Below are positions 2,893 through 11,723 of a stretch of 18,126 bases of DNA, in pieces. The notes under the pieces are model-generated. The model saw only the letters and a program-made list of their open reading frames with translations, was not told the origin of the DNA and made no database searches. The position numbers and the translations under genes are program-made. Each line of letters begins with the position of its first letter. The first letter of the stretch is position 1. Origin of the DNA: a virus. Lineage: Duplodnaviria; Heunggongvirae; Uroviricota; Caudoviricetes. The stretch lies in IMG/VR virus record IMGVR_UViG_2671180699_000003; one strand, given 5' to 3'.

Positions 2893-2917
2893 AAAAAACC
2901 CGCTCAGTGGCGGGTTT
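2893..2917 (-). terminator. rho-independent terminator (tR'-like position)
   Basis: On the minus strand: stem CCCGC / loop CACTGA / stem GCGGG followed by TTTTTT. Lies downstream of the 205-aa gene. Confidence 0.55.
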
Positions 2918-3046
2918 AAGTTGTGTGGCGAAGTAACCACTCTTAACACACTAATAGCATTTTTGTTATAACACAAGTAGCTCATTCAGTATTTTTAGAA
3001 TCTTGACTTTCTTAAGCACGGCGAACTCTGAATACCAAACATAAAA

Positions 3047-3664
3047 TCAATTATCTTCCAGGCCGGATGCTATCAACGAAAGCCTCTCAAAAAACGCTGT
3101 AGCAGCCTTGTCCAAAGTTGAATAAGTACTGTATTCTCCGTGTTCGGGACCAACCACTACCCATGGTCGTCTTTTTGGGATTCGGGACTTCTCAGAAATC
3201 ACTGTTCCAGATATACCAATATCAATTGTTACACCTGTTATTATTTTCTCTTCATCTCTTTCCCTGAACTCAATTGCCATAAATGCCGTTTTTTTTCGTT
3301 TCCCGTTTTTAAAAAAATCAAATAAAGCAAAGCGATGCTCATTAAAATCAACACCCCATCGTCCTTCAGGATAAAGGGCATGAAAGTTGTCATTTACGCT
3401 CTGCATCGTCTCATAAGCTTTAACTTCTAAATCTCCATAGTGCATAGATACCGCGCAGGAGTCACTGGGTAACTGTATTTTCCCAAGATTGAAAACCTTT
3501 ACTGCTCCAGAACTATGGCATCTTGCCCGCAATTTATCCCCATTTATACTAATCGGAGAAATATTCCTTAATGTTCCGGGCTGGCTCCCTCCTAAGTAAA
3601 CGACTGTTAAAGATTGCTTATTTTCAATTGCATCAACTAATACATGCTCTACATTTTTATCCAT
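3047..3664 (-). CDS. hypothetical cargo protein, 205 aa, with a possible N-terminal WYL-like beta-barrel
   Basis: Start set at the ATG at 3664 (MDKNVEHV...), which has a GGGAGG SD 7 nt upstream, rather than the ORF-track start at 3691. The segment LTVVYLGGSQPGTLRNISPISINGDKLRARCHSSGAVKVFNLGKIQL resembles the WYL pattern by eye. AT-rich compared with its neighbours. Confidence 0.55.
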   Translation of the reverse strand: MDKNVEHVLVDAIENKQSLTVVYLGGSQPGTLRNISPISINGDKLRARCHSSGAVKVFNLGKIQLPSDSCAVSMHYGDLEVKAYETMQSVNDNFHALYPEGRWGVDFNEHRFALFDFFKNGKRKKTAFMAIEFRERDEEKIITGVTIDIGISGTVISEKSRIPKRRPWVVVGPEHGEYSTYSTLDKAATAFFERLSLIASGLEDN

Positions 3665-3665
3665 A

Positions 3666-3702
3666 ATAACCTCCCGATGAACAGGTATCATCAGGAGGTT
3701 AT
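3666..3702 (-). promoter_or_regulatory. 15-bp hairpin sequestering the SD of the 205-aa gene
   Basis: Inverted repeat ATAACCTCC(C/T)GATGA ... TCATC(A/G)GGAGGTTAT with a 7-nt loop. The GGGAGG SD sits in one arm and the start codon lies 1 nt beyond the stem. Confidence 0.5.
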
Positions 3703-3739
3703 AATAAAATATGATTATTTACTTTGATTGAATTTATTA

Positions 3740-4111
3740 CTATATGTAACAATCAATTTCTAAAGATACCCCCAACATTGCCAGACAACCGTCAATAAAC
3801 CCTTCAGCTTTCTGCAGTCTGATAACAACCTGATTAAGTGATATCCCCAGTTTTACCCCCAACGCCCGTAATGTAACCCCATACACATAATACATTTCCA
3901 GTAATTCGTATTGATACGGTTCCTTTTTCTTAAGAACTGTCATTGCAGAGCTAATGATCAGGCCATCGTCATCGCTACATTGCGGGCGGGATTTTACTTT
4001 CGAAGGAATTAATCCCTTAAAACCTGCAGCAACAGATGACCATTCCACATCCTCGTGATTATTTGCCACCCATGCCCCCCAACGTTCAAGAACCATTTGA
4101 ATATCACGCAT
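3740..4111 (-). CDS. quuD: late-gene antiterminator Q (QuuD-like), 123 aa
   Basis: Product MRDIQMVLERWGAW..NNHEDV.WSS.AAGFKGLI.SKVKSRPQC.DDDG... matches my recollection of DLP12 QuuD. ATG at 4111 has a GGAGA SD; the ORF-track start at 4126 is a TTG. Confidence 0.8.
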   Translation of the reverse strand: MRDIQMVLERWGAWVANNHEDVEWSSVAAGFKGLIPSKVKSRPQCSDDDGLIISSAMTVLKKKEPYQYELLEMYYVYGVTLRALGVKLGISLNQVVIRLQKAEGFIDGCLAMLGVSLEIDCYI

Positions 4112-4128
4112 CAACTTTCTCCACAAAA

Positions 4129-5124
4129 TCAGGCCAGCACGCCTATTGCCAGCGCACGATCGATAAAACGAAATATCAGCTCCAGCTGGGAGCCATACTT
4201 CTCTTCAAATGCCACGGTATCCGCATGCAGCTCGTCGTGATGCTTTCTGCACAAAGGCAACACAAAGAGGTCATGCGCTTTTGTACCCATTCCACCCTGA
4301 CCGTGGCCTATCAGGTGGTGGGGATCATCAGCAGGCTTTCCACAACATGCACACGGCTGTGTCTTAACCCAGCGCGTGTACTTTTCATTAACCCAGCGGC
4401 GGCGTTTTGGGCGTAACATAAAAGACTCCGGCGACTCCGGATCCACTTTCAGCGCCAGCACCTTTTTCGCTTTATCCTGGATGATGCTGGTGGCAGGAAC
4501 CGAAGGCACAAGGTCACTCTCCCGGGTGACAGACGGCACAACAGGTTTCGGTAATCTCAGCGCCTTACGGGCTGCGCTTTCAGGTAAGGCATCCGCCAGG
4601 TCATTACGAATCAGCCACCAGCACAGTTCCGGCATTGTCACGGCATGGTTATCATCAAAACCGAGATCCCGACGGACTACAGACAACACCCAGCGGGCAC
4701 AGTTATCCGTTGCCATTGATTCCAGCCGTTCCGTGAACTGATCGCGCAGCTGGTTATCGCAGTGCCAGCACAGACGGATTGCGCCCGGAGCGTGTCGCAT
4801 TGTGGTCATGTTCTCGCTGTGCCAGTCGGAATGAGGCCACTGGCAGCCTTTTTCACGAAGTAACCAGCTTTCAAGACATTCCACGCCACCAGCACGACGG
4901 ATCACTGCCTCATTGCGGAACACGGCCCGAACGGCAGGATCATCCGCCAGCGGTTGTGATACCGCCGGAACGGCACCACTGGCGAAAGATGAATAACGTT
5001 CCGGCTCAGGCTCCAGCAGGACACGCCCCTGCATAAACAGGGGCATCAGCTCTGAACCTGGCCTGAACAATACGATCCCCATACGCGGGGCAATTTCAGG
5101 GGTCAGTAGTGCTCTCACGGTCAC
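4129..5124 (-). CDS. DUF968-like nin-region protein with C-terminal HNH-like Cys/His motif, 331 aa
   Basis: C-terminal CACCGKPADDPHHLIGHGQGGMGTKAHDLFVLPLCRKHHDELH. GTG start. Sits between the KilA-N gene and Q. Confidence 0.5.
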   Translation of the reverse strand: MTVRALLTPEIAPRMGIVLFRPGSELMPLFMQGRVLLEPEPERYSSFASGAVPAVSQPLADDPAVRAVFRNEAVIRRAGGVECLESWLLREKGCQWPHSDWHSENMTTMRHAPGAIRLCWHCDNQLRDQFTERLESMATDNCARWVLSVVRRDLGFDDNHAVTMPELCWWLIRNDLADALPESAARKALRLPKPVVPSVTRESDLVPSVPATSIIQDKAKKVLALKVDPESPESFMLRPKRRRWVNEKYTRWVKTQPCACCGKPADDPHHLIGHGQGGMGTKAHDLFVLPLCRKHHDELHADTVAFEEKYGSQLELIFRFIDRALAIGVLA

Positions 5125-5954: not shown

Positions 5955-6344
5955 TCAGGCAGCTGCACCCGCCGTTTTCTCGTACTTACTGATAGTGATC
6001 TCGACCTTCCCTTCCGGGATAACCGGTCCCCACTCCACCAGCATTCTTTTCACCTGACTGTCGTCTTCCCACACCCCCGCGTGGGTCAGGGCGTCAAACA
6101 GCGCCTTGTTATAGTTGTCCAGATCGCGGATCCTGTTATCCGGAGGAAACAACACGATCTCCACTGAAGCAGGTGCCGACGTTGGTTTCGGCAGACGACG
6201 TAACTGCTCAACTATTGCTGCACACGCCGCGCTCTGGAATTTGCGCCCCGCCGCGCTTATCAGGCTCTTACCTGCAAACGCCACTTTGTTGGGGTGTCGC
6301 CAGTACGTGTTCACGCTGGGCGGAAAAGGCAGTATTAGCTTCAT
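5955..6344 (-). CDS. rusA: RusA Holliday junction resolvase
   Basis: 129 aa with LPFPPSVNTYWRH and RDLDNYNKALFDALTHAGVWEDDSQV, matching the RusA family catalytic region. Confidence 0.85.
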   Translation of the reverse strand: MKLILPFPPSVNTYWRHPNKVAFAGKSLISAAGRKFQSAACAAIVEQLRRLPKPTSAPASVEIVLFPPDNRIRDLDNYNKALFDALTHAGVWEDDSQVKRMLVEWGPVIPEGKVEITISKYEKTAGAAA

Positions 6345-6667
6345 ACTTTCAGGCCCCTCTCATGTAACCAGTGGGCTGCACGCAACCTGGCGTTCTCCTC
6401 ACCGGCAAGCAGTGCGCGGATGATACCGACCGCCTCGCTGTCGTCGTCCTTCACCGCGGTATGAAGCGTGATGCCCCGGGCCACGCCACGCTTTATCGTG
6501 ATGACGCCTTTTTTCTCCAGTGCGCGAAGATGCTCCACCGCTGCATTCACTGAACGGTATCCCAGCATGGTTGCCACCTCCTGATTGGTTGGCGGGAAGC
6601 CACGTTCTTTCTGATAAGAAATCAGCATATCCAGCACCTGCTGCTGGCATTGAGTTAACGTCGTCAT
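6341..6667 (-). CDS. LexA N-terminal DNA-binding domain protein (no S24 peptidase domain), 108 aa
   Basis: QQQVLDMLISYQKERGFPPTNQEVATMLGYRSVNAAVEHLRALEKKGVITI closely parallels the LexA winged-helix N-terminus. ATGA overlap with rusA. Confidence 0.65.
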   Translation of the reverse strand: MTTLTQCQQQVLDMLISYQKERGFPPTNQEVATMLGYRSVNAAVEHLRALEKKGVITIKRGVARGITLHTAVKDDDSEAVGIIRALLAGEENARLRAAHWLHERGLKV

Positions 6668-8800: not shown

Positions 8801-9021
8801 GCCGCACCTCCGAGATGCTTCATGTTTTTTCCGGAGCGAAAGGCTATAAGCGGCATACTGACGCGGTAATTACGGCCCAGCGGTTCACAAATCACCTTCT
8901 GACATTCACGGTCAACCAGGCTAACACGTAGAACATGCCCTGCAGGCGTGGTGTACCACTGACCGGGGCGAGGACAACGGAAAGTCTGATTGGTAAATCG
9001 TTTGAAAATATTCCGGATCAT
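8797..9021 (-). CDS. hypothetical protein, 74 aa
   Basis: AAGGGGG SD 5 nt upstream; ATGA overlaps with both neighbours. Confidence 0.4.
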   Translation of the reverse strand: MIRNIFKRFTNQTFRCPRPGQWYTTPAGHVLRVSLVDRECQKVICEPLGRNYRVSMPLIAFRSGKNMKHLGGAA

Positions 9022-10166
9022 TTGCGCCCCCTTACCTCTGAAGAGTTCAGCGACGAATGAATAAGACGGGCAAGAAATGCCGCATCGTTAATTCGGTCAT
9101 ACAGACTTACAGCCAGAGGTGATTCAGCTTTTTCCAGCATGGGATAAAGCTGCTGCAACCAGACCTGATGAATTGATGAAATGTAGGAATAGAGAACGCT
9201 GGCGTTATGTGCAACGTCGCTCGGTACAGCGGGCTTTGAAAGCTGTTTCTCCATCTGGTTAAAGGCATTGATGTATGCCTCTTTGAACTGGGCAGCACGT
9301 TTACCCGTGAAACCCATAGCAAGAAACGCAAAGCCGTCGCGGGTTATTTGATAGCAAGGTAGTTTGCGGCCTGTGCAATCGGTGTAATCACTCACCGAAA
9401 AATTGCGGGCAGTGAATGATGCGGAACATTCAAGCGTGCGGATCTTTTTCAGTACATCGTCATGACGTTTGGAGAAGAAGTTGGCAACAGCCAGGGATGA
9501 AGTAACAGCCTGACCATCAACGATGGCAATTTCAGGTTGAGTGAGGGTTGGGATCGTAGCCATGATGGCAGTCTCCGATAACAGTGAATTACCTTCACCA
9601 CCGGAAACGCCAATTTCGCTGGTGGTGAACTGAACGGGGTTGGCGTAACCGGCGTTATCGGAAACCGGCGCACCTTTCGGTGCCCCCGTCCAGCCCACCA
9701 TAATTTGGGTGTGCACAGACGCAGACGATAAAAAAGACGCTGGCGCGTCATATATCGCCGATAACATTTCCAGGACGCCAATCCCGACACCCGCTTTATA
9801 AGGTGCCTGAACAGTGTAACGTCCCGGAATGGCAGAATCAATGTGCTGGTGGTCCTTCACACTCAACAAAATCACGCCTGAATTTCCACAAAGGACTAAA
9901 GCACTCATGCGGGTAGTCTTTGCGAAGATAGATAACGCGCTGTGTTTCTGGCTCCCAACGAATAACATGGACATAAAGCCCTCTTCCGTCACGAAACCAG
10001 CGGTTAAGTTCCTGCACAACTCGCCCCCCACAGTCAGGTAAAGTTCTCTGTGGTTACTTACAGCCAGGTGATTTGGTAATCTGCATTCATGCCGTAACAA
10101 CAGGTGTTCAGCGACGCTGACCACCAGCTGTTGCGACAAACGGTTATTTGCCGTTAAACTGTTCAT
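9018..10166 (-). CDS. Rha-family phage regulatory protein with a ~200-aa N-terminal extension (382 aa; alternative internal start at 9563 gives 181 aa)
   Basis: Rha-like motifs QAVTSSLAVANFFSKRHDDVLKKIR and ITRDGFAFLAMGFTGKRAAQFKEAYINAF begin at residue ~202. The ATG at 9563 has a GGAGA SD, but the frame stays open upstream to an ATG at 10166 that overlaps the upstream stop (ATGA). Confidence 0.55.
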   Translation of the reverse strand: MNSLTANNRLSQQLVVSVAEHLLLRHECRLPNHLAVSNHRELYLTVGGELCRNLTAGFVTEEGFMSMLFVGSQKHSALSIFAKTTRMSALVLCGNSGVILLSVKDHQHIDSAIPGRYTVQAPYKAGVGIGVLEMLSAIYDAPASFLSSASVHTQIMVGWTGAPKGAPVSDNAGYANPVQFTTSEIGVSGGEGNSLLSETAIMATIPTLTQPEIAIVDGQAVTSSLAVANFFSKRHDDVLKKIRTLECSASFTARNFSVSDYTDCTGRKLPCYQITRDGFAFLAMGFTGKRAAQFKEAYINAFNQMEKQLSKPAVPSDVAHNASVLYSYISSIHQVWLQQLYPMLEKAESPLAVSLYDRINDAAFLARLIHSSLNSSEVRGRK

Positions 10167-10726
10167 GCGTTAGTTTCTCCACAGACACAAAACGCCACGA
10201 CGCCCGGAGCTGCACACTCGCGGGCGTCACTCTTTTCTGGAGCGCAAAAGATTTTGTAGACCAGTGCTGCATGCTCCTGGAGCTTCGAAATTGACAGATA
10301 CAACTCATCATTAATTGCTGTCTGCTCGTGTGGCTCCACTACCCCATCTTCGATTGCCGAACGAATCTGCTTTGAGTAACTCCCGATCTGTTCGATGACT
10401 TCCAGCAGGCGCTGGTTTATATCGGCGTTCTCTACTTCCTCAAGTTCAGGAAGCGATACAAACACCCCACCAGCAGACTGTGCGACAGCATCCGCAATGT
10501 AGTGAGTGCCAGCCGCGCGCTGTAAAATCATTGCCCATCCCAGCGGGAAAATCTGATCGCCATCTGCACGAAGGCGGTTGAATAAAGCGTTCTCTGTTAC
10601 ATCCAGCCACTCAGCAGCTTCAGCGTAACCTCCCGGCAACGCCGCGATAGTTTTTCTGACAGCTTTCACGTACCACTCAGGCTGTTTTTCTACTTTCCAG
10701 TGATGCTTACCCACGGTTAGCCTCAT
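10163..10726 (-). CDS. hypothetical regulator at the CII position (possibly YdaT-like), 187 aa
   Basis: First gene after cro. HTH-like segment GGYAEAAEWLDVTENALFNRLR followed by a predicted helical region. A GTG at 10714 with a GAGG SD is a possible alternative start. Confidence 0.35.
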   Translation of the reverse strand: MRLTVGKHHWKVEKQPEWYVKAVRKTIAALPGGYAEAAEWLDVTENALFNRLRADGDQIFPLGWAMILQRAAGTHYIADAVAQSAGGVFVSLPELEEVENADINQRLLEVIEQIGSYSKQIRSAIEDGVVEPHEQTAINDELYLSISKLQEHAALVYKIFCAPEKSDARECAAPGVVAFCVCGETNA

Positions 10727-11048: not shown

Positions 11049-11723
11049 ATGAAAACAGTCCATGACATCCGGCGGTCTAACGCCAGAAAACTGAGAGATG
11101 GTGTTGGCGGGAATTCTTCCTTTGCCACCATGATTGATCGCGAGCCAACCCAGACCAGCAGGTTTATGGGAGATGGTGCTACTAAAAATATCGGTGACAG
11201 CATGGCACGGCACATCGAAAAATGTTTCGACCTGCCTGTCGGATGGCTTGATCAAGAACACCAGACAACAAACATCACAAAAAAACCTGATGTTTCAATT
11301 ACTAACAAACAAATAACGTTAGTCCCTGTCATATCATGGGTACAGGCCGGAGCATGGAAAGAAGTTGGCTATTCTGAGGTTGATTTGAGCACAGCAGAAA
11401 CTTATCCCTGCCCTGTACCCTGTGGCGAAATGACTTATATCTTGCGGGTGATTGGTGATTCAATGATTGATGAGTACCGCCCGGGAGACATGATTTTTGT
11501 TGATCCTGAAGTCCCTGCCTGCCACGGTGACGACGTTATTGCATTGATGCACGATACAGGCGAAACCACCTTCAAGCGGTTGATAGAAGATGGAACACAG
11601 CGTTACCTCAAAGCATTAAACCCAAACTGGCCTGAACCTTACATTAAGATCAACGGTAATTGCTCTATAATTGGTACAGTGATTTTCTCAGGAAAACCAA
11701 GAAGATACAAAATAAAGGCCTAA
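11049..11723 (+). CDS. CI-like phage repressor (N-terminal HTH, C-terminal S24 LexA-type autopeptidase), 224 aa
   Basis: C-terminal GDSM (Ser nucleophile) and TFKRL (Lys) S24 motifs; HTH-like N-terminus; divergent from cro. Confidence 0.85.
   Translation: MKTVHDIRRSNARKLRDGVGGNSSFATMIDREPTQTSRFMGDGATKNIGDSMARHIEKCFDLPVGWLDQEHQTTNITKKPDVSITNKQITLVPVISWVQAGAWKEVGYSEVDLSTAETYPCPVPCGEMTYILRVIGDSMIDEYRPGDMIFVDPEVPACHGDDVIALMHDTGETTFKRLIEDGTQRYLKALNPNWPEPYIKINGNCSIIGTVIFSGKPRRYKIKA

Follow-up and report, generated by a model that had tools for sequence, protein, structure and literature searches.

We analysed an 18,126-nt stretch of viral DNA (IMG/VR record IMGVR_UViG_2671180699_000003; hereafter the window), in which a foreign cargo gene encoding a 205-amino-acid protein with a WYL domain lies between the antiterminator gene Q of a lambdoid prophage and what is in all likelihood the late promoter pR'. 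All features of this locus described below are on the minus strand, and positions are given in window numbering. The Q gene (3740-4111) encodes 123 amino acids from the ATG at 4111, the mechanically called open reading frame (ORF) beginning at a TTG at 4126. Its product matched PF06530 with an E-value of 5e-48, which confirmed the Q antiterminator proposed at this place in an earlier note made from the sequence; PF06530 is the Q21 family (PMC9388147). Q is followed by a 75-nt spacer (3665-3739) in which a promoter is unsupported, by the cargo coding sequence (CDS) at 3047-3664, and by about 130 nt of non-coding DNA that ends at a terminator hairpin (2893-2917). The cargo protein, read from the ATG at 3664, was assigned to phrog_8498 (E 3e-126), a PHROGs family of unknown function. 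An in-frame ATG at 3691 would give an alternative of 214 amino acids, but it lies within a hairpin and lacks a Shine-Dalgarno (SD) sequence. RefSeq carries the identical 205-amino-acid CDS, labelled as a "hypothetical" or a "WYL domain-containing" protein. With a GC content of 39.6%, the cargo ORF is below both the window as a whole (48%) and the DUF968 gene directly upstream of Q (4129-5124; 56%). Thus, the single AT-rich ORF of unknown function that had been noted between Q and a terminator is indeed present, and horizontal acquisition of this functionally uncharacterised gene is supported. A second Escherichia coli allele (allele 2, locus L027) encodes a protein with 71% amino-acid identity, and the dN/dS ratio of 0.23 between the two indicates that the cargo is a real protein under purifying selection.

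The AlphaFold model of the cargo protein, built from a 71-sequence alignment, had a predicted local distance difference test (pLDDT) score of 82 and consisted of two domains. The N-terminal domain (approximately residues 3-65; 3470-3658) is an Sm/SH3-like five-stranded barrel that could be superposed on solved WYL domains, whereas the C-terminal domain (approximately residues 87-199; 3068-3406) has an alpha-beta5-alpha arrangement with a disordered acidic loop at residues 140-151. The match to the Pfam WYL model PF13280 was sub-threshold (16.5 bits against a gathering cut-off of 21.8, E 0.0085), and similarly sub-threshold WYL matches were obtained for 48 of the 71 family members, the best with an E-value of 1.2e-4. 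The earlier note had seen a resemblance to a WYL-type barrel in the N-terminal half of the protein. Profile and model both confirmed the barrel, but it covers approximately residues 3-65, that is a third of the protein and not half.

The family profile also matched the WYL protein DriD (E 1.6e-4) over the motif Y-x-G-G-S-x-P-G-x-x-R-E-x-x-P. In DriD this motif carries Y168, S172, R176 and R178, which contact the backbone of single-stranded DNA (ssDNA) (PMC9186387); the DriD numbering was checked against chain 9pfq, for which the offset is 4. Residues Y23, S27 and R33 of the family align to Y168, S172 and R178 of DriD and are conserved in at least 90% of the members or invariant, but the contact R176 is replaced by Thr31 in the cargo protein. 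Eight columns of the family alignment are invariant (G26, P29, G30, R33, P37, A47, K56 and F58), and all of them fall within the WYL domain. Judged by spacing and not by a tool alignment, R46, K56 and F58 would be placed where DriD has Y192, K202 and R204. The Trp-Tyr-Leu tripeptide is missing, the equivalent strand reading K-L-R-A-R (residues 44-48); this tripeptide is degenerate also in DriD (NYL, PMC9186387) and in CapW (WHV, PMC11662680).

No match to a helix-turn-helix (HTH) domain was obtained with Pfam, NCBIfam or PADLOC, and the WYL barrel begins at about residue 3. There is no WCX dimerisation domain either, the C-terminal fold being different. The cargo protein cannot act as a one-component transcription factor. 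Accordingly, of the link to regulators of defence systems that had been drawn earlier, the fold remains, but the HTH and WCX parts of those regulators are absent. No family member was covered by a Pfam family, and the searches of Pfam, NCBIfam, PHROGs and PADLOC yielded for naming only the sub-threshold WYL match and two PHROGs of unknown function. In PADLOC-DB 2.0 only generic Cas-associated WYL models were matched (E 0.0014-0.0066), with no significant match to a defence system, and a search of BFVD gave no full-length viral match. The sensor domain of the cargo protein is thus a known one, but the architecture that contains it is uncharacterised.

The family to which it belongs is large. 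A search with the single sequence found 9 relatives, a profile search 93 and an exhaustive profile search 954 cluster representatives, 608 of them at E < 1e-10, and nearly all members are 187-210 amino acids long. The homologues were found in varied surroundings. In two related marine phages the gene lies between the terminase and Rha/antirepressor genes, and in another phage it is near the terminase and AntA genes. One homologue is in a rexAB-like position, 15 nt behind a cI-like repressor gene from which cro diverges; others adjoin an integrase, share a small islet with ParE, or belong to an island together with GmrSD, NYN, a serine recombinase and PemK. Two genomes carry the gene as an integron cassette (arrays at L019 3000-12588 and L005 5400-10500, the homologue gene being at 6001-6588 in both). 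At these loci attC-like repeats of 107-112 nt (..CTAACAA to ..GTTAGGC or GTTATGT) separate small same-strand genes; the cassettes of L019 include ParE/Phd, HicAB and HEPN_Swt1, and in L005 a truncated integrase fragment lies divergently just upstream of the array. No neighbouring gene was shared across 12 or more loci, the flanking proteins of six of which were compared directly. The varied mobile contexts and the lack of a common neighbour imply that the protein behaves as a self-contained mobile unit, and as far as these loci tell, the family appears to be stand-alone, all contexts seen being mobile DNA (phage morons, integron cassettes and islands).

Several members depart from the basic architecture. 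P0203, P0219 and P0220 have N-terminal hydrophobic, probably transmembrane, helices together with a coiled coil, and P0167 carries three zinc ribbons and two hydrophobic helices at its C-terminus. In P0145 (356 amino acids) an extra domain of about 150 amino acids without a Pfam match is fused to the protein. In a Pseudoalteromonas locus (L021, 768-1223) this extra domain is encoded by a separate gene 9 nt downstream, and the two are grouped together as phrog_31886, of unknown function.

The position of the cargo gene in the late switch was deduced from its downstream side. The terminator at 2893-2917 consists of a G+C-rich stem of 8 bp with U6 behind it. The segment 2850-2916, which covers the terminator and the DNA following it, is 100% identical in mEp460, Ayreon and Stx2c phages and is annotated as "terminator" in Ayreon; in allele 2 the pairing is kept while the sequence has changed. 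Since the hairpin is shared with phages that have other cargo or none, it represents the tR' of the late operon. Therefore, the strong terminator that had been thought to close off the cargo gene is real as regards its stem and U-tract, but it belongs to the late operon and is not private to the cargo, although tR' would also stop unmodified polymerases leaving that gene. Ayreon (L002) has a different Q protein of 250 amino acids, and its pR', which in our reading of the sequence resembles that of lambda, lies beside Q and is followed at once by the same terminator hairpin. In this phage the hairpin AACCCGCCACTGAGCGGGTTTTTT occurs twice (1826-1850 and 2501-2530), bracketing a 37-amino-acid ORF and a 141-amino-acid gene whose product looks like a lipoprotein from its N-terminus, as if this cargo and a second copy of tR' had been inserted together.

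We aligned five loci, namely the window, allele 2 and the phages 569R4, PhiR40_1 and Stx2a_1447. In all five the leader GTTAAGAGTGGTTACTTCGCCACACAAC (2918-2947 in the window), which is near-identical in the other four, leads into the terminator. Upstream of the leader the pattern T-A-n-n-n-T is invariant (TAGTGT, TAATCT, TATCGT, TATGCT and TATCGT) within variable surroundings, and an AAAAA run in the promoter spacer is likewise invariant. The putative pR' with an allele-specific Q-binding region would thus occupy 2948-2976 (-35 TTGTGT at 2971-2976, a 17-nt spacer and -10 TAGTGT at 2948-2953), and transcription from it would begin near 2941, with about 50 nt from there to the end of tR'. Its distance from Q is 0.77 kb, instead of the two being adjacent. 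The 17-mer TTGTGTTATAACAAAAA at 2960-2976 is common to the window and allele 2 only. The predicted recognition helix of Q, ISLNQVVIRLQKAEGF, is also the same in these two and differs among the Q proteins of 569R4, PhiR40_1 and Stx2a_1447; a 17-mer that tracks the Q helix in this way has the features expected of a Q-binding site specific to the allele. On the template used for Q21 loading, the pause element was preceded by positions -40 to -1 of pR' (10.1101/651190), and by analogy we have taken the Q-binding element (QBE) to be within this interval. At 2961-2976 there is a near-perfect 16-bp palindrome, TTGTGTTATAACAAAA, with the centre GTTATAAC; it overlaps the putative -35 element and is conserved in allele 2, whereas the Q21 site has been described as a direct repeat.

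In 569R4, PhiR40_1 and Stx2a_1447 the cargo between Q and the leader block is on the opposite strand, and in 569R4 and PhiR40_1 a G+C-rich hairpin with a T-run follows directly after Q. The opposite-strand cargo and the terminator after Q in these phages imply that their pR' is not beside Q. The slot between Q and pR' contains one or two opposite-strand genes in 569R4 (L003 969-2364), PhiR40_1 (L017 2470-2916) and Stx2a_1447 (L025 1-1425); neither these nor the cargo of Ayreon gave a match in Pfam or PADLOC. Judging from the loci compared, this slot is a cargo hotspot. We consider it highly probable that the cargo gene of the window lies between Q and pR' at the tail of the Q transcript, where it would not be under Q control, and that the terminator is tR'. 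Two points weigh against the placement of pR', namely that its hexamers match the consensus weakly (6/12) and were not called by a promoter scan, and that neither a Q21-type direct-repeat QBE nor a sigma-dependent pause element (SDPE) was identified at it.

The earlier note had placed the gene in the slot where stx is carried and had suggested that the 75 bp following Q might contain a constitutive promoter of the pR' type. Neither proposal was borne out: stx lies downstream of pR' and tR', whereas the cargo gene is upstream of the block 2893-2976 and in the transcription unit of Q, and the proposed promoter elements TTCAAT (3727-3732) and TATTAT (3701-3706) are separated by a 20-nt spacer that in allele 2 is changed by an 11-nt indel. 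Promoter-like matches in the region were at the level of chance (5 found against 4.2 expected from shuffles), and a promoter beside Q was therefore rejected. If pR' were nevertheless located there, the cargo would be inside a constitutive pR'-tR' leader and an RNA of about 0.8 kb would be made in every lysogen. The distance between pR' and tR' is about 194 nt in lambda. It is variable, reaching 258 nt in Stx phages (PMC7547250), and textbook cassettes have pR' next to Q (10.1101/651190), which together with the AT-rich -10-like hexamers in the spacer would favour such an arrangement. However, besides the unsuitable spacing of the hexamers and the indel between them, the 17-mer, the T-A-n-n-n-T element and the leader are all conserved downstream of the cargo, and in the phages that share the leader Q is followed by a terminator and the cargo is on the opposite strand, which puts pR' beside the leader. 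We therefore regard this arrangement as very unlikely. In Rfam no family was matched at or near the gathering score. A sub-threshold match to the Salmonella small RNA STnc130 (31.6 bits against a gathering score of 55, E 0.025) was found on the plus strand at 2789-2925, antisense to tR' and the leader, and probably reflects shared prophage sequence.

The cargo gene and the Q allele are inherited together. Of 5426 complete E. coli genomes, 52 contained the C-terminal half of Q with the recognition helix, and the cargo gene was present in all 52; for allele 2, Q and the cargo occurred together in 21 of 22 genomes. The two alleles jointly were present in about 74 of the 5426 genomes and in none of 50,697 phage records. 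The Q allele is never found without the cargo because the cargo sits between Q and the site of Q, so that an exchange removing the cargo would part them.

The SD sequence GGGAGG (3670-3675), located by direct reading 5 nt before the ATG (3662-3664), and the start codon are buried in a stem-loop at 3660-3708. The core stem, formed by 3688-3702 and 3666-3680, comprises 15 bp with one G.U pair and encloses a 7-nt loop (3681-3687); the SD is in its 3' arm, and an outer helix of 5 bp pairs the AUG. Folding confirmed what had been seen in the sequence, with a minimum free energy of -26.2 kcal/mol and z-scores of -4.1 (101 nt) and -5.6 (70 nt), and none of 200 shuffled sequences was equally stable. 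Moreover, 3666-3702 was the top-ranked inverted repeat of the whole window. A consensus terminator scan called neither this hairpin nor that of tR'; in our reading, the stems were stretched into the A/U flanks and the counted T-run was thereby shortened. The 5' arm holds ACCUCCU, which is paired to the SD and matches the 3' tail of 16S rRNA. Allele 2 retains the hairpin (z -3.6) with three one-sided changes, namely C-G to U.G, U.G to U-A and one broken pair; a comparison of the window with allele 2 revealed no compensatory double change. Conservation across the two alleles is suggestive and falls short of proof.

A comparable structure was absent from seven distant homologue loci (z -1 to +2), and among the loci compared only the two E. 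coli Q-linked alleles had the hairpin. This implies that it is a property of the junction between Q and the cargo and not of the protein family. The earlier suggestion that translation is gated as for toxic proteins did not hold up, and a family-wide safeguard for a toxic protein was ruled out by the same seven loci. No upstream ORF able to open the hairpin by translational coupling was present, the Q stop codon being 38 nt ahead of the stem, and neither a processing site nor a trans-acting opener was identified.

The hairpin might instead be mainly a transcription element at which the Q message is ended or trimmed, acting as a weak intrinsic terminator or as a processing site for RNase III, with the burial of the SD as a by-product. 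In that case the cargo would be translated only from transcripts that start inside the stem (at 3694 or later) and leave the SD free. Such starts would indeed release it, since transcripts beginning at 3694 or 3691 lost the structure (-10 and -9 kcal/mol, respectively, z 0), while one beginning at 3697 retained it. By inspection, the G+C-rich hairpins of 569R4 and PhiR40_1, each with a T-run, occupy the corresponding position immediately behind Q; if GGGAGG is taken as the end of the stem in the window, 5 of the following 8 nt (UUAUUAUG) are U; and the full helix of about 20 bp with one 1x1 mismatch is near the size of an RNase III substrate. However, the U-tract is interrupted, the -10-like hexamers in the AT-rich spacer occur at chance frequency, and the anti-SD arm is, as in a translational operator, an exact ACCUCCU copy of the 16S tail, paired to the SD. 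We consider a primary role in transcription quite unlikely. It would concern the RNA element only and be compatible with any of the three roles of the protein weighed below. A start site inside the stem, which is unsupported, would make the hairpin a transcript-specific gate.

As regards the function of the protein, its occurrence in integron cassettes, next to cI, as a phage moron and in restriction/toxin islands, together with the membrane fusions, makes a role protecting the carrier the most likely one. We tentatively favour, at somewhat less than even probability, a self-contained mobile single-gene conflict module that protects its carrier by an ssDNA-triggered exclusion or by an abortive-type response. 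In the protein, the WYL barrel is joined by a flexible linker to the family-specific alpha/beta domain. According to this reading, the gene would form the last part of the delayed-early Q transcript, which would terminate at tR' unless the polymerase were antiterminated, and a stem of approximately -22 to -26 kcal/mol over the SD and the AUG would keep translation very low unless opened. The WYL pocket would bind ssDNA or a similar nucleic-acid fragment arising from phage replication, recombination or DNA damage, and the binding could alter the oligomerisation or the target contact of the C-terminal domain.

Several observations weigh against a conflict module. The 205-amino-acid form showed neither a catalytic nor a pore-forming feature, and hence no effector was identified. 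The proposed ssDNA ligand is suggested by analogy from three conserved contact residues, the fourth (R176 in DriD) being a threonine, and two further DriD contacts, Y240 and R288, fall in regions that the cargo protein does not have. A literature search found no paper on the accession, the family, HTH-less WYL proteins of phages or WYL integron cassettes; a paper on Gifsy-1 mentions WYL in its reference list only. In addition, since a promoter of its own is unsupported and its SD is sequestered, synthesis of the E. coli copy may be confined to lytic growth, which would fit counter-defence better than protection of the lysogen.

Such counter-defence could take the form of a decoy that is made together with Q and either absorbs the ssDNA alarm ligand of CapW or BrxR or poisons their dimers, so that CBASS- or BREX-type operons stay repressed. 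The gene is co-oriented with Q, 75 nt behind it and without a supported promoter, so lytic expression would be expected, and the ligand pocket is kept while a DNA-binding output is absent. A target also exists, since a CapW-controlled CBASS is triggered by induction of a lambda prophage and reduces the virion yield (PMC11662680). On the other hand, homologues are present in integron cassettes, beside cI and in restriction/toxin islands, where counter-defence would not benefit the carrier; membrane-anchored variants are ill-suited to a sponge; with the SD locked, only small amounts of protein would be expected, which does not suit a sponge acting stoichiometrically; and neither a WCX domain nor a dimer interface common to the host regulators was found. 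We thus consider a decoy unlikely. It is very improbable that the protein regulates its own prophage by sensing ssDNA or DNA damage and contacting RNA polymerase, Q, RecA or the repressor to tune late expression or the timing of induction: its strict linkage to one Q allele and putative QBE (52/52, and 21/22 for allele 2), the action of the WYL activators DriD and PafBC on RNA polymerase (PDB 9fnd) and the overlap of the palindrome TTGTGTTATAACAAAA with the putative -35 would speak for it, but the linkage is more simply that of a gene physically trapped between Q and the site of Q, distant homologues in integron cassettes and islands have no Q nearby, and there is no DNA-binding domain to read the palindrome.

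Extending the conflict-module reading to the whole family is more doubtful. The proteins of about 195 amino acids composed of WYL plus another domain could form a new one-gene immune or counter-immune class, in which an ssDNA sensor is combined with an undescribed alpha/beta output domain that is sometimes swapped for, or joined to, membrane segments. Such a class would have spread as integron cassettes and phage morons, and the E. coli copy would be one that could not be lost without breaking the late switch. We regard the cargo gene as a reasonable candidate for work on phage-host conflict, while neither a new system nor a new mechanism is demonstrated. To our knowledge, the characterised WYL proteins all link ssDNA sensing to transcription through a fused HTH or assist Cas13d. 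A widespread form without an HTH would show that the WYL sensor can be wired to another output, and it would offer a compact system for testing how an ssDNA alarm is read or masked by mobile elements. If the protein is inert or merely structural, the gene is an ordinary moron. Cargo placed between Q and pR' would be assured of co-inheritance with the late switch, in a slot distinct from that of stx, and this placement bears on predicting whether prophage cargo is expressed in the lysogen or only upon induction.

The remainder of the window has the following features. Downstream of tR' are the first conserved ORF of the late leader (2567-2794, minus, phrog_331), which belongs to the same backbone in phages with other cargo, and after it a DNA methylase gene (1364-2416, minus). 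At 1303-1312 there is a run of 10 N beside an IS1-type end (1245-1302, matching annotated IS1 transposase), which we take to be the terminal inverted repeat of IS1; further to the left are the host genes actS/ygeR (1-756) and tRNA-Gly(ccc) (835-908). The window is probably a scaffold join at which the adjacency of the prophage to host DNA is uncertain, and the idea of a truncated prophage was dropped in view of the N run beside the IS1 end. On the minus strand at 6341-6667, in a nin-like region beside RusA and a Dam methylase, a 108-amino-acid protein consists of the LexA DNA-binding domain only (PF01726, E 3e-19) and has no peptidase domain. An S24-peptidase repressor-like gene (11049-11723, plus) has on one side an Ash/Rha fusion (9018-10166, minus, 382 amino acids) and a CII(CP76)-type regulator (10163-10726, minus); these genes are the immunity region of the prophage.

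Among known systems, the cargo protein is related by its sensor domain to the regulators with a winged HTH (wHTH)-WYL-WCX architecture, which include the activators DriD and PafBC and the repressors CapW and BrxR of CBASS and BREX. It differs from them in lacking the HTH, the three-helix linker and the WCX domain and in having another C-terminal fold; moreover, these regulators are encoded beside the operon they control, whereas the cargo gene is not so placed. WYL1 (PDB 6oaw), the accessory protein of Cas13d, carries a ribbon-helix-helix (RHH) domain. It is twice the size of the cargo protein and is encoded beside cas13d, while no CRISPR context was seen at any homologue locus examined.

The hairpin shares with the SD-sequestering operators of the lambda N-leader type a stable helix over the SD and the AUG, in a phage gene read as part of a long early transcript. 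In the lambda N leader the structure is relieved by RNase III, whereas here no processing site, trans-acting opener or coupling ORF was identified. The RNA of about 50 nt that would run from approximately 2941 to tR' is comparable to the 6S RNA of lambda and to StxS as a constitutive by-product of antitermination (PMC7547250), but this leader would be much shorter than the 258-nt Stx leader and the cargo would not be part of it. Of the features of an autonomous moron, the composition fits the cargo gene, while a promoter of its own is unsupported and the terminator is the tR' of the backbone. As with morons of the stx type and rexAB beside cI, an AT-rich foreign gene is inserted in a lambdoid backbone and the cargo varies from phage to phage, and one distant homologue of the cargo protein even occupies a rexAB-like position. 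However, the gene of the window differs from stx in that it lies not after tR' but between Q and pR', where it would escape the control of Q and be co-inherited with the pair formed by Q and its binding element.

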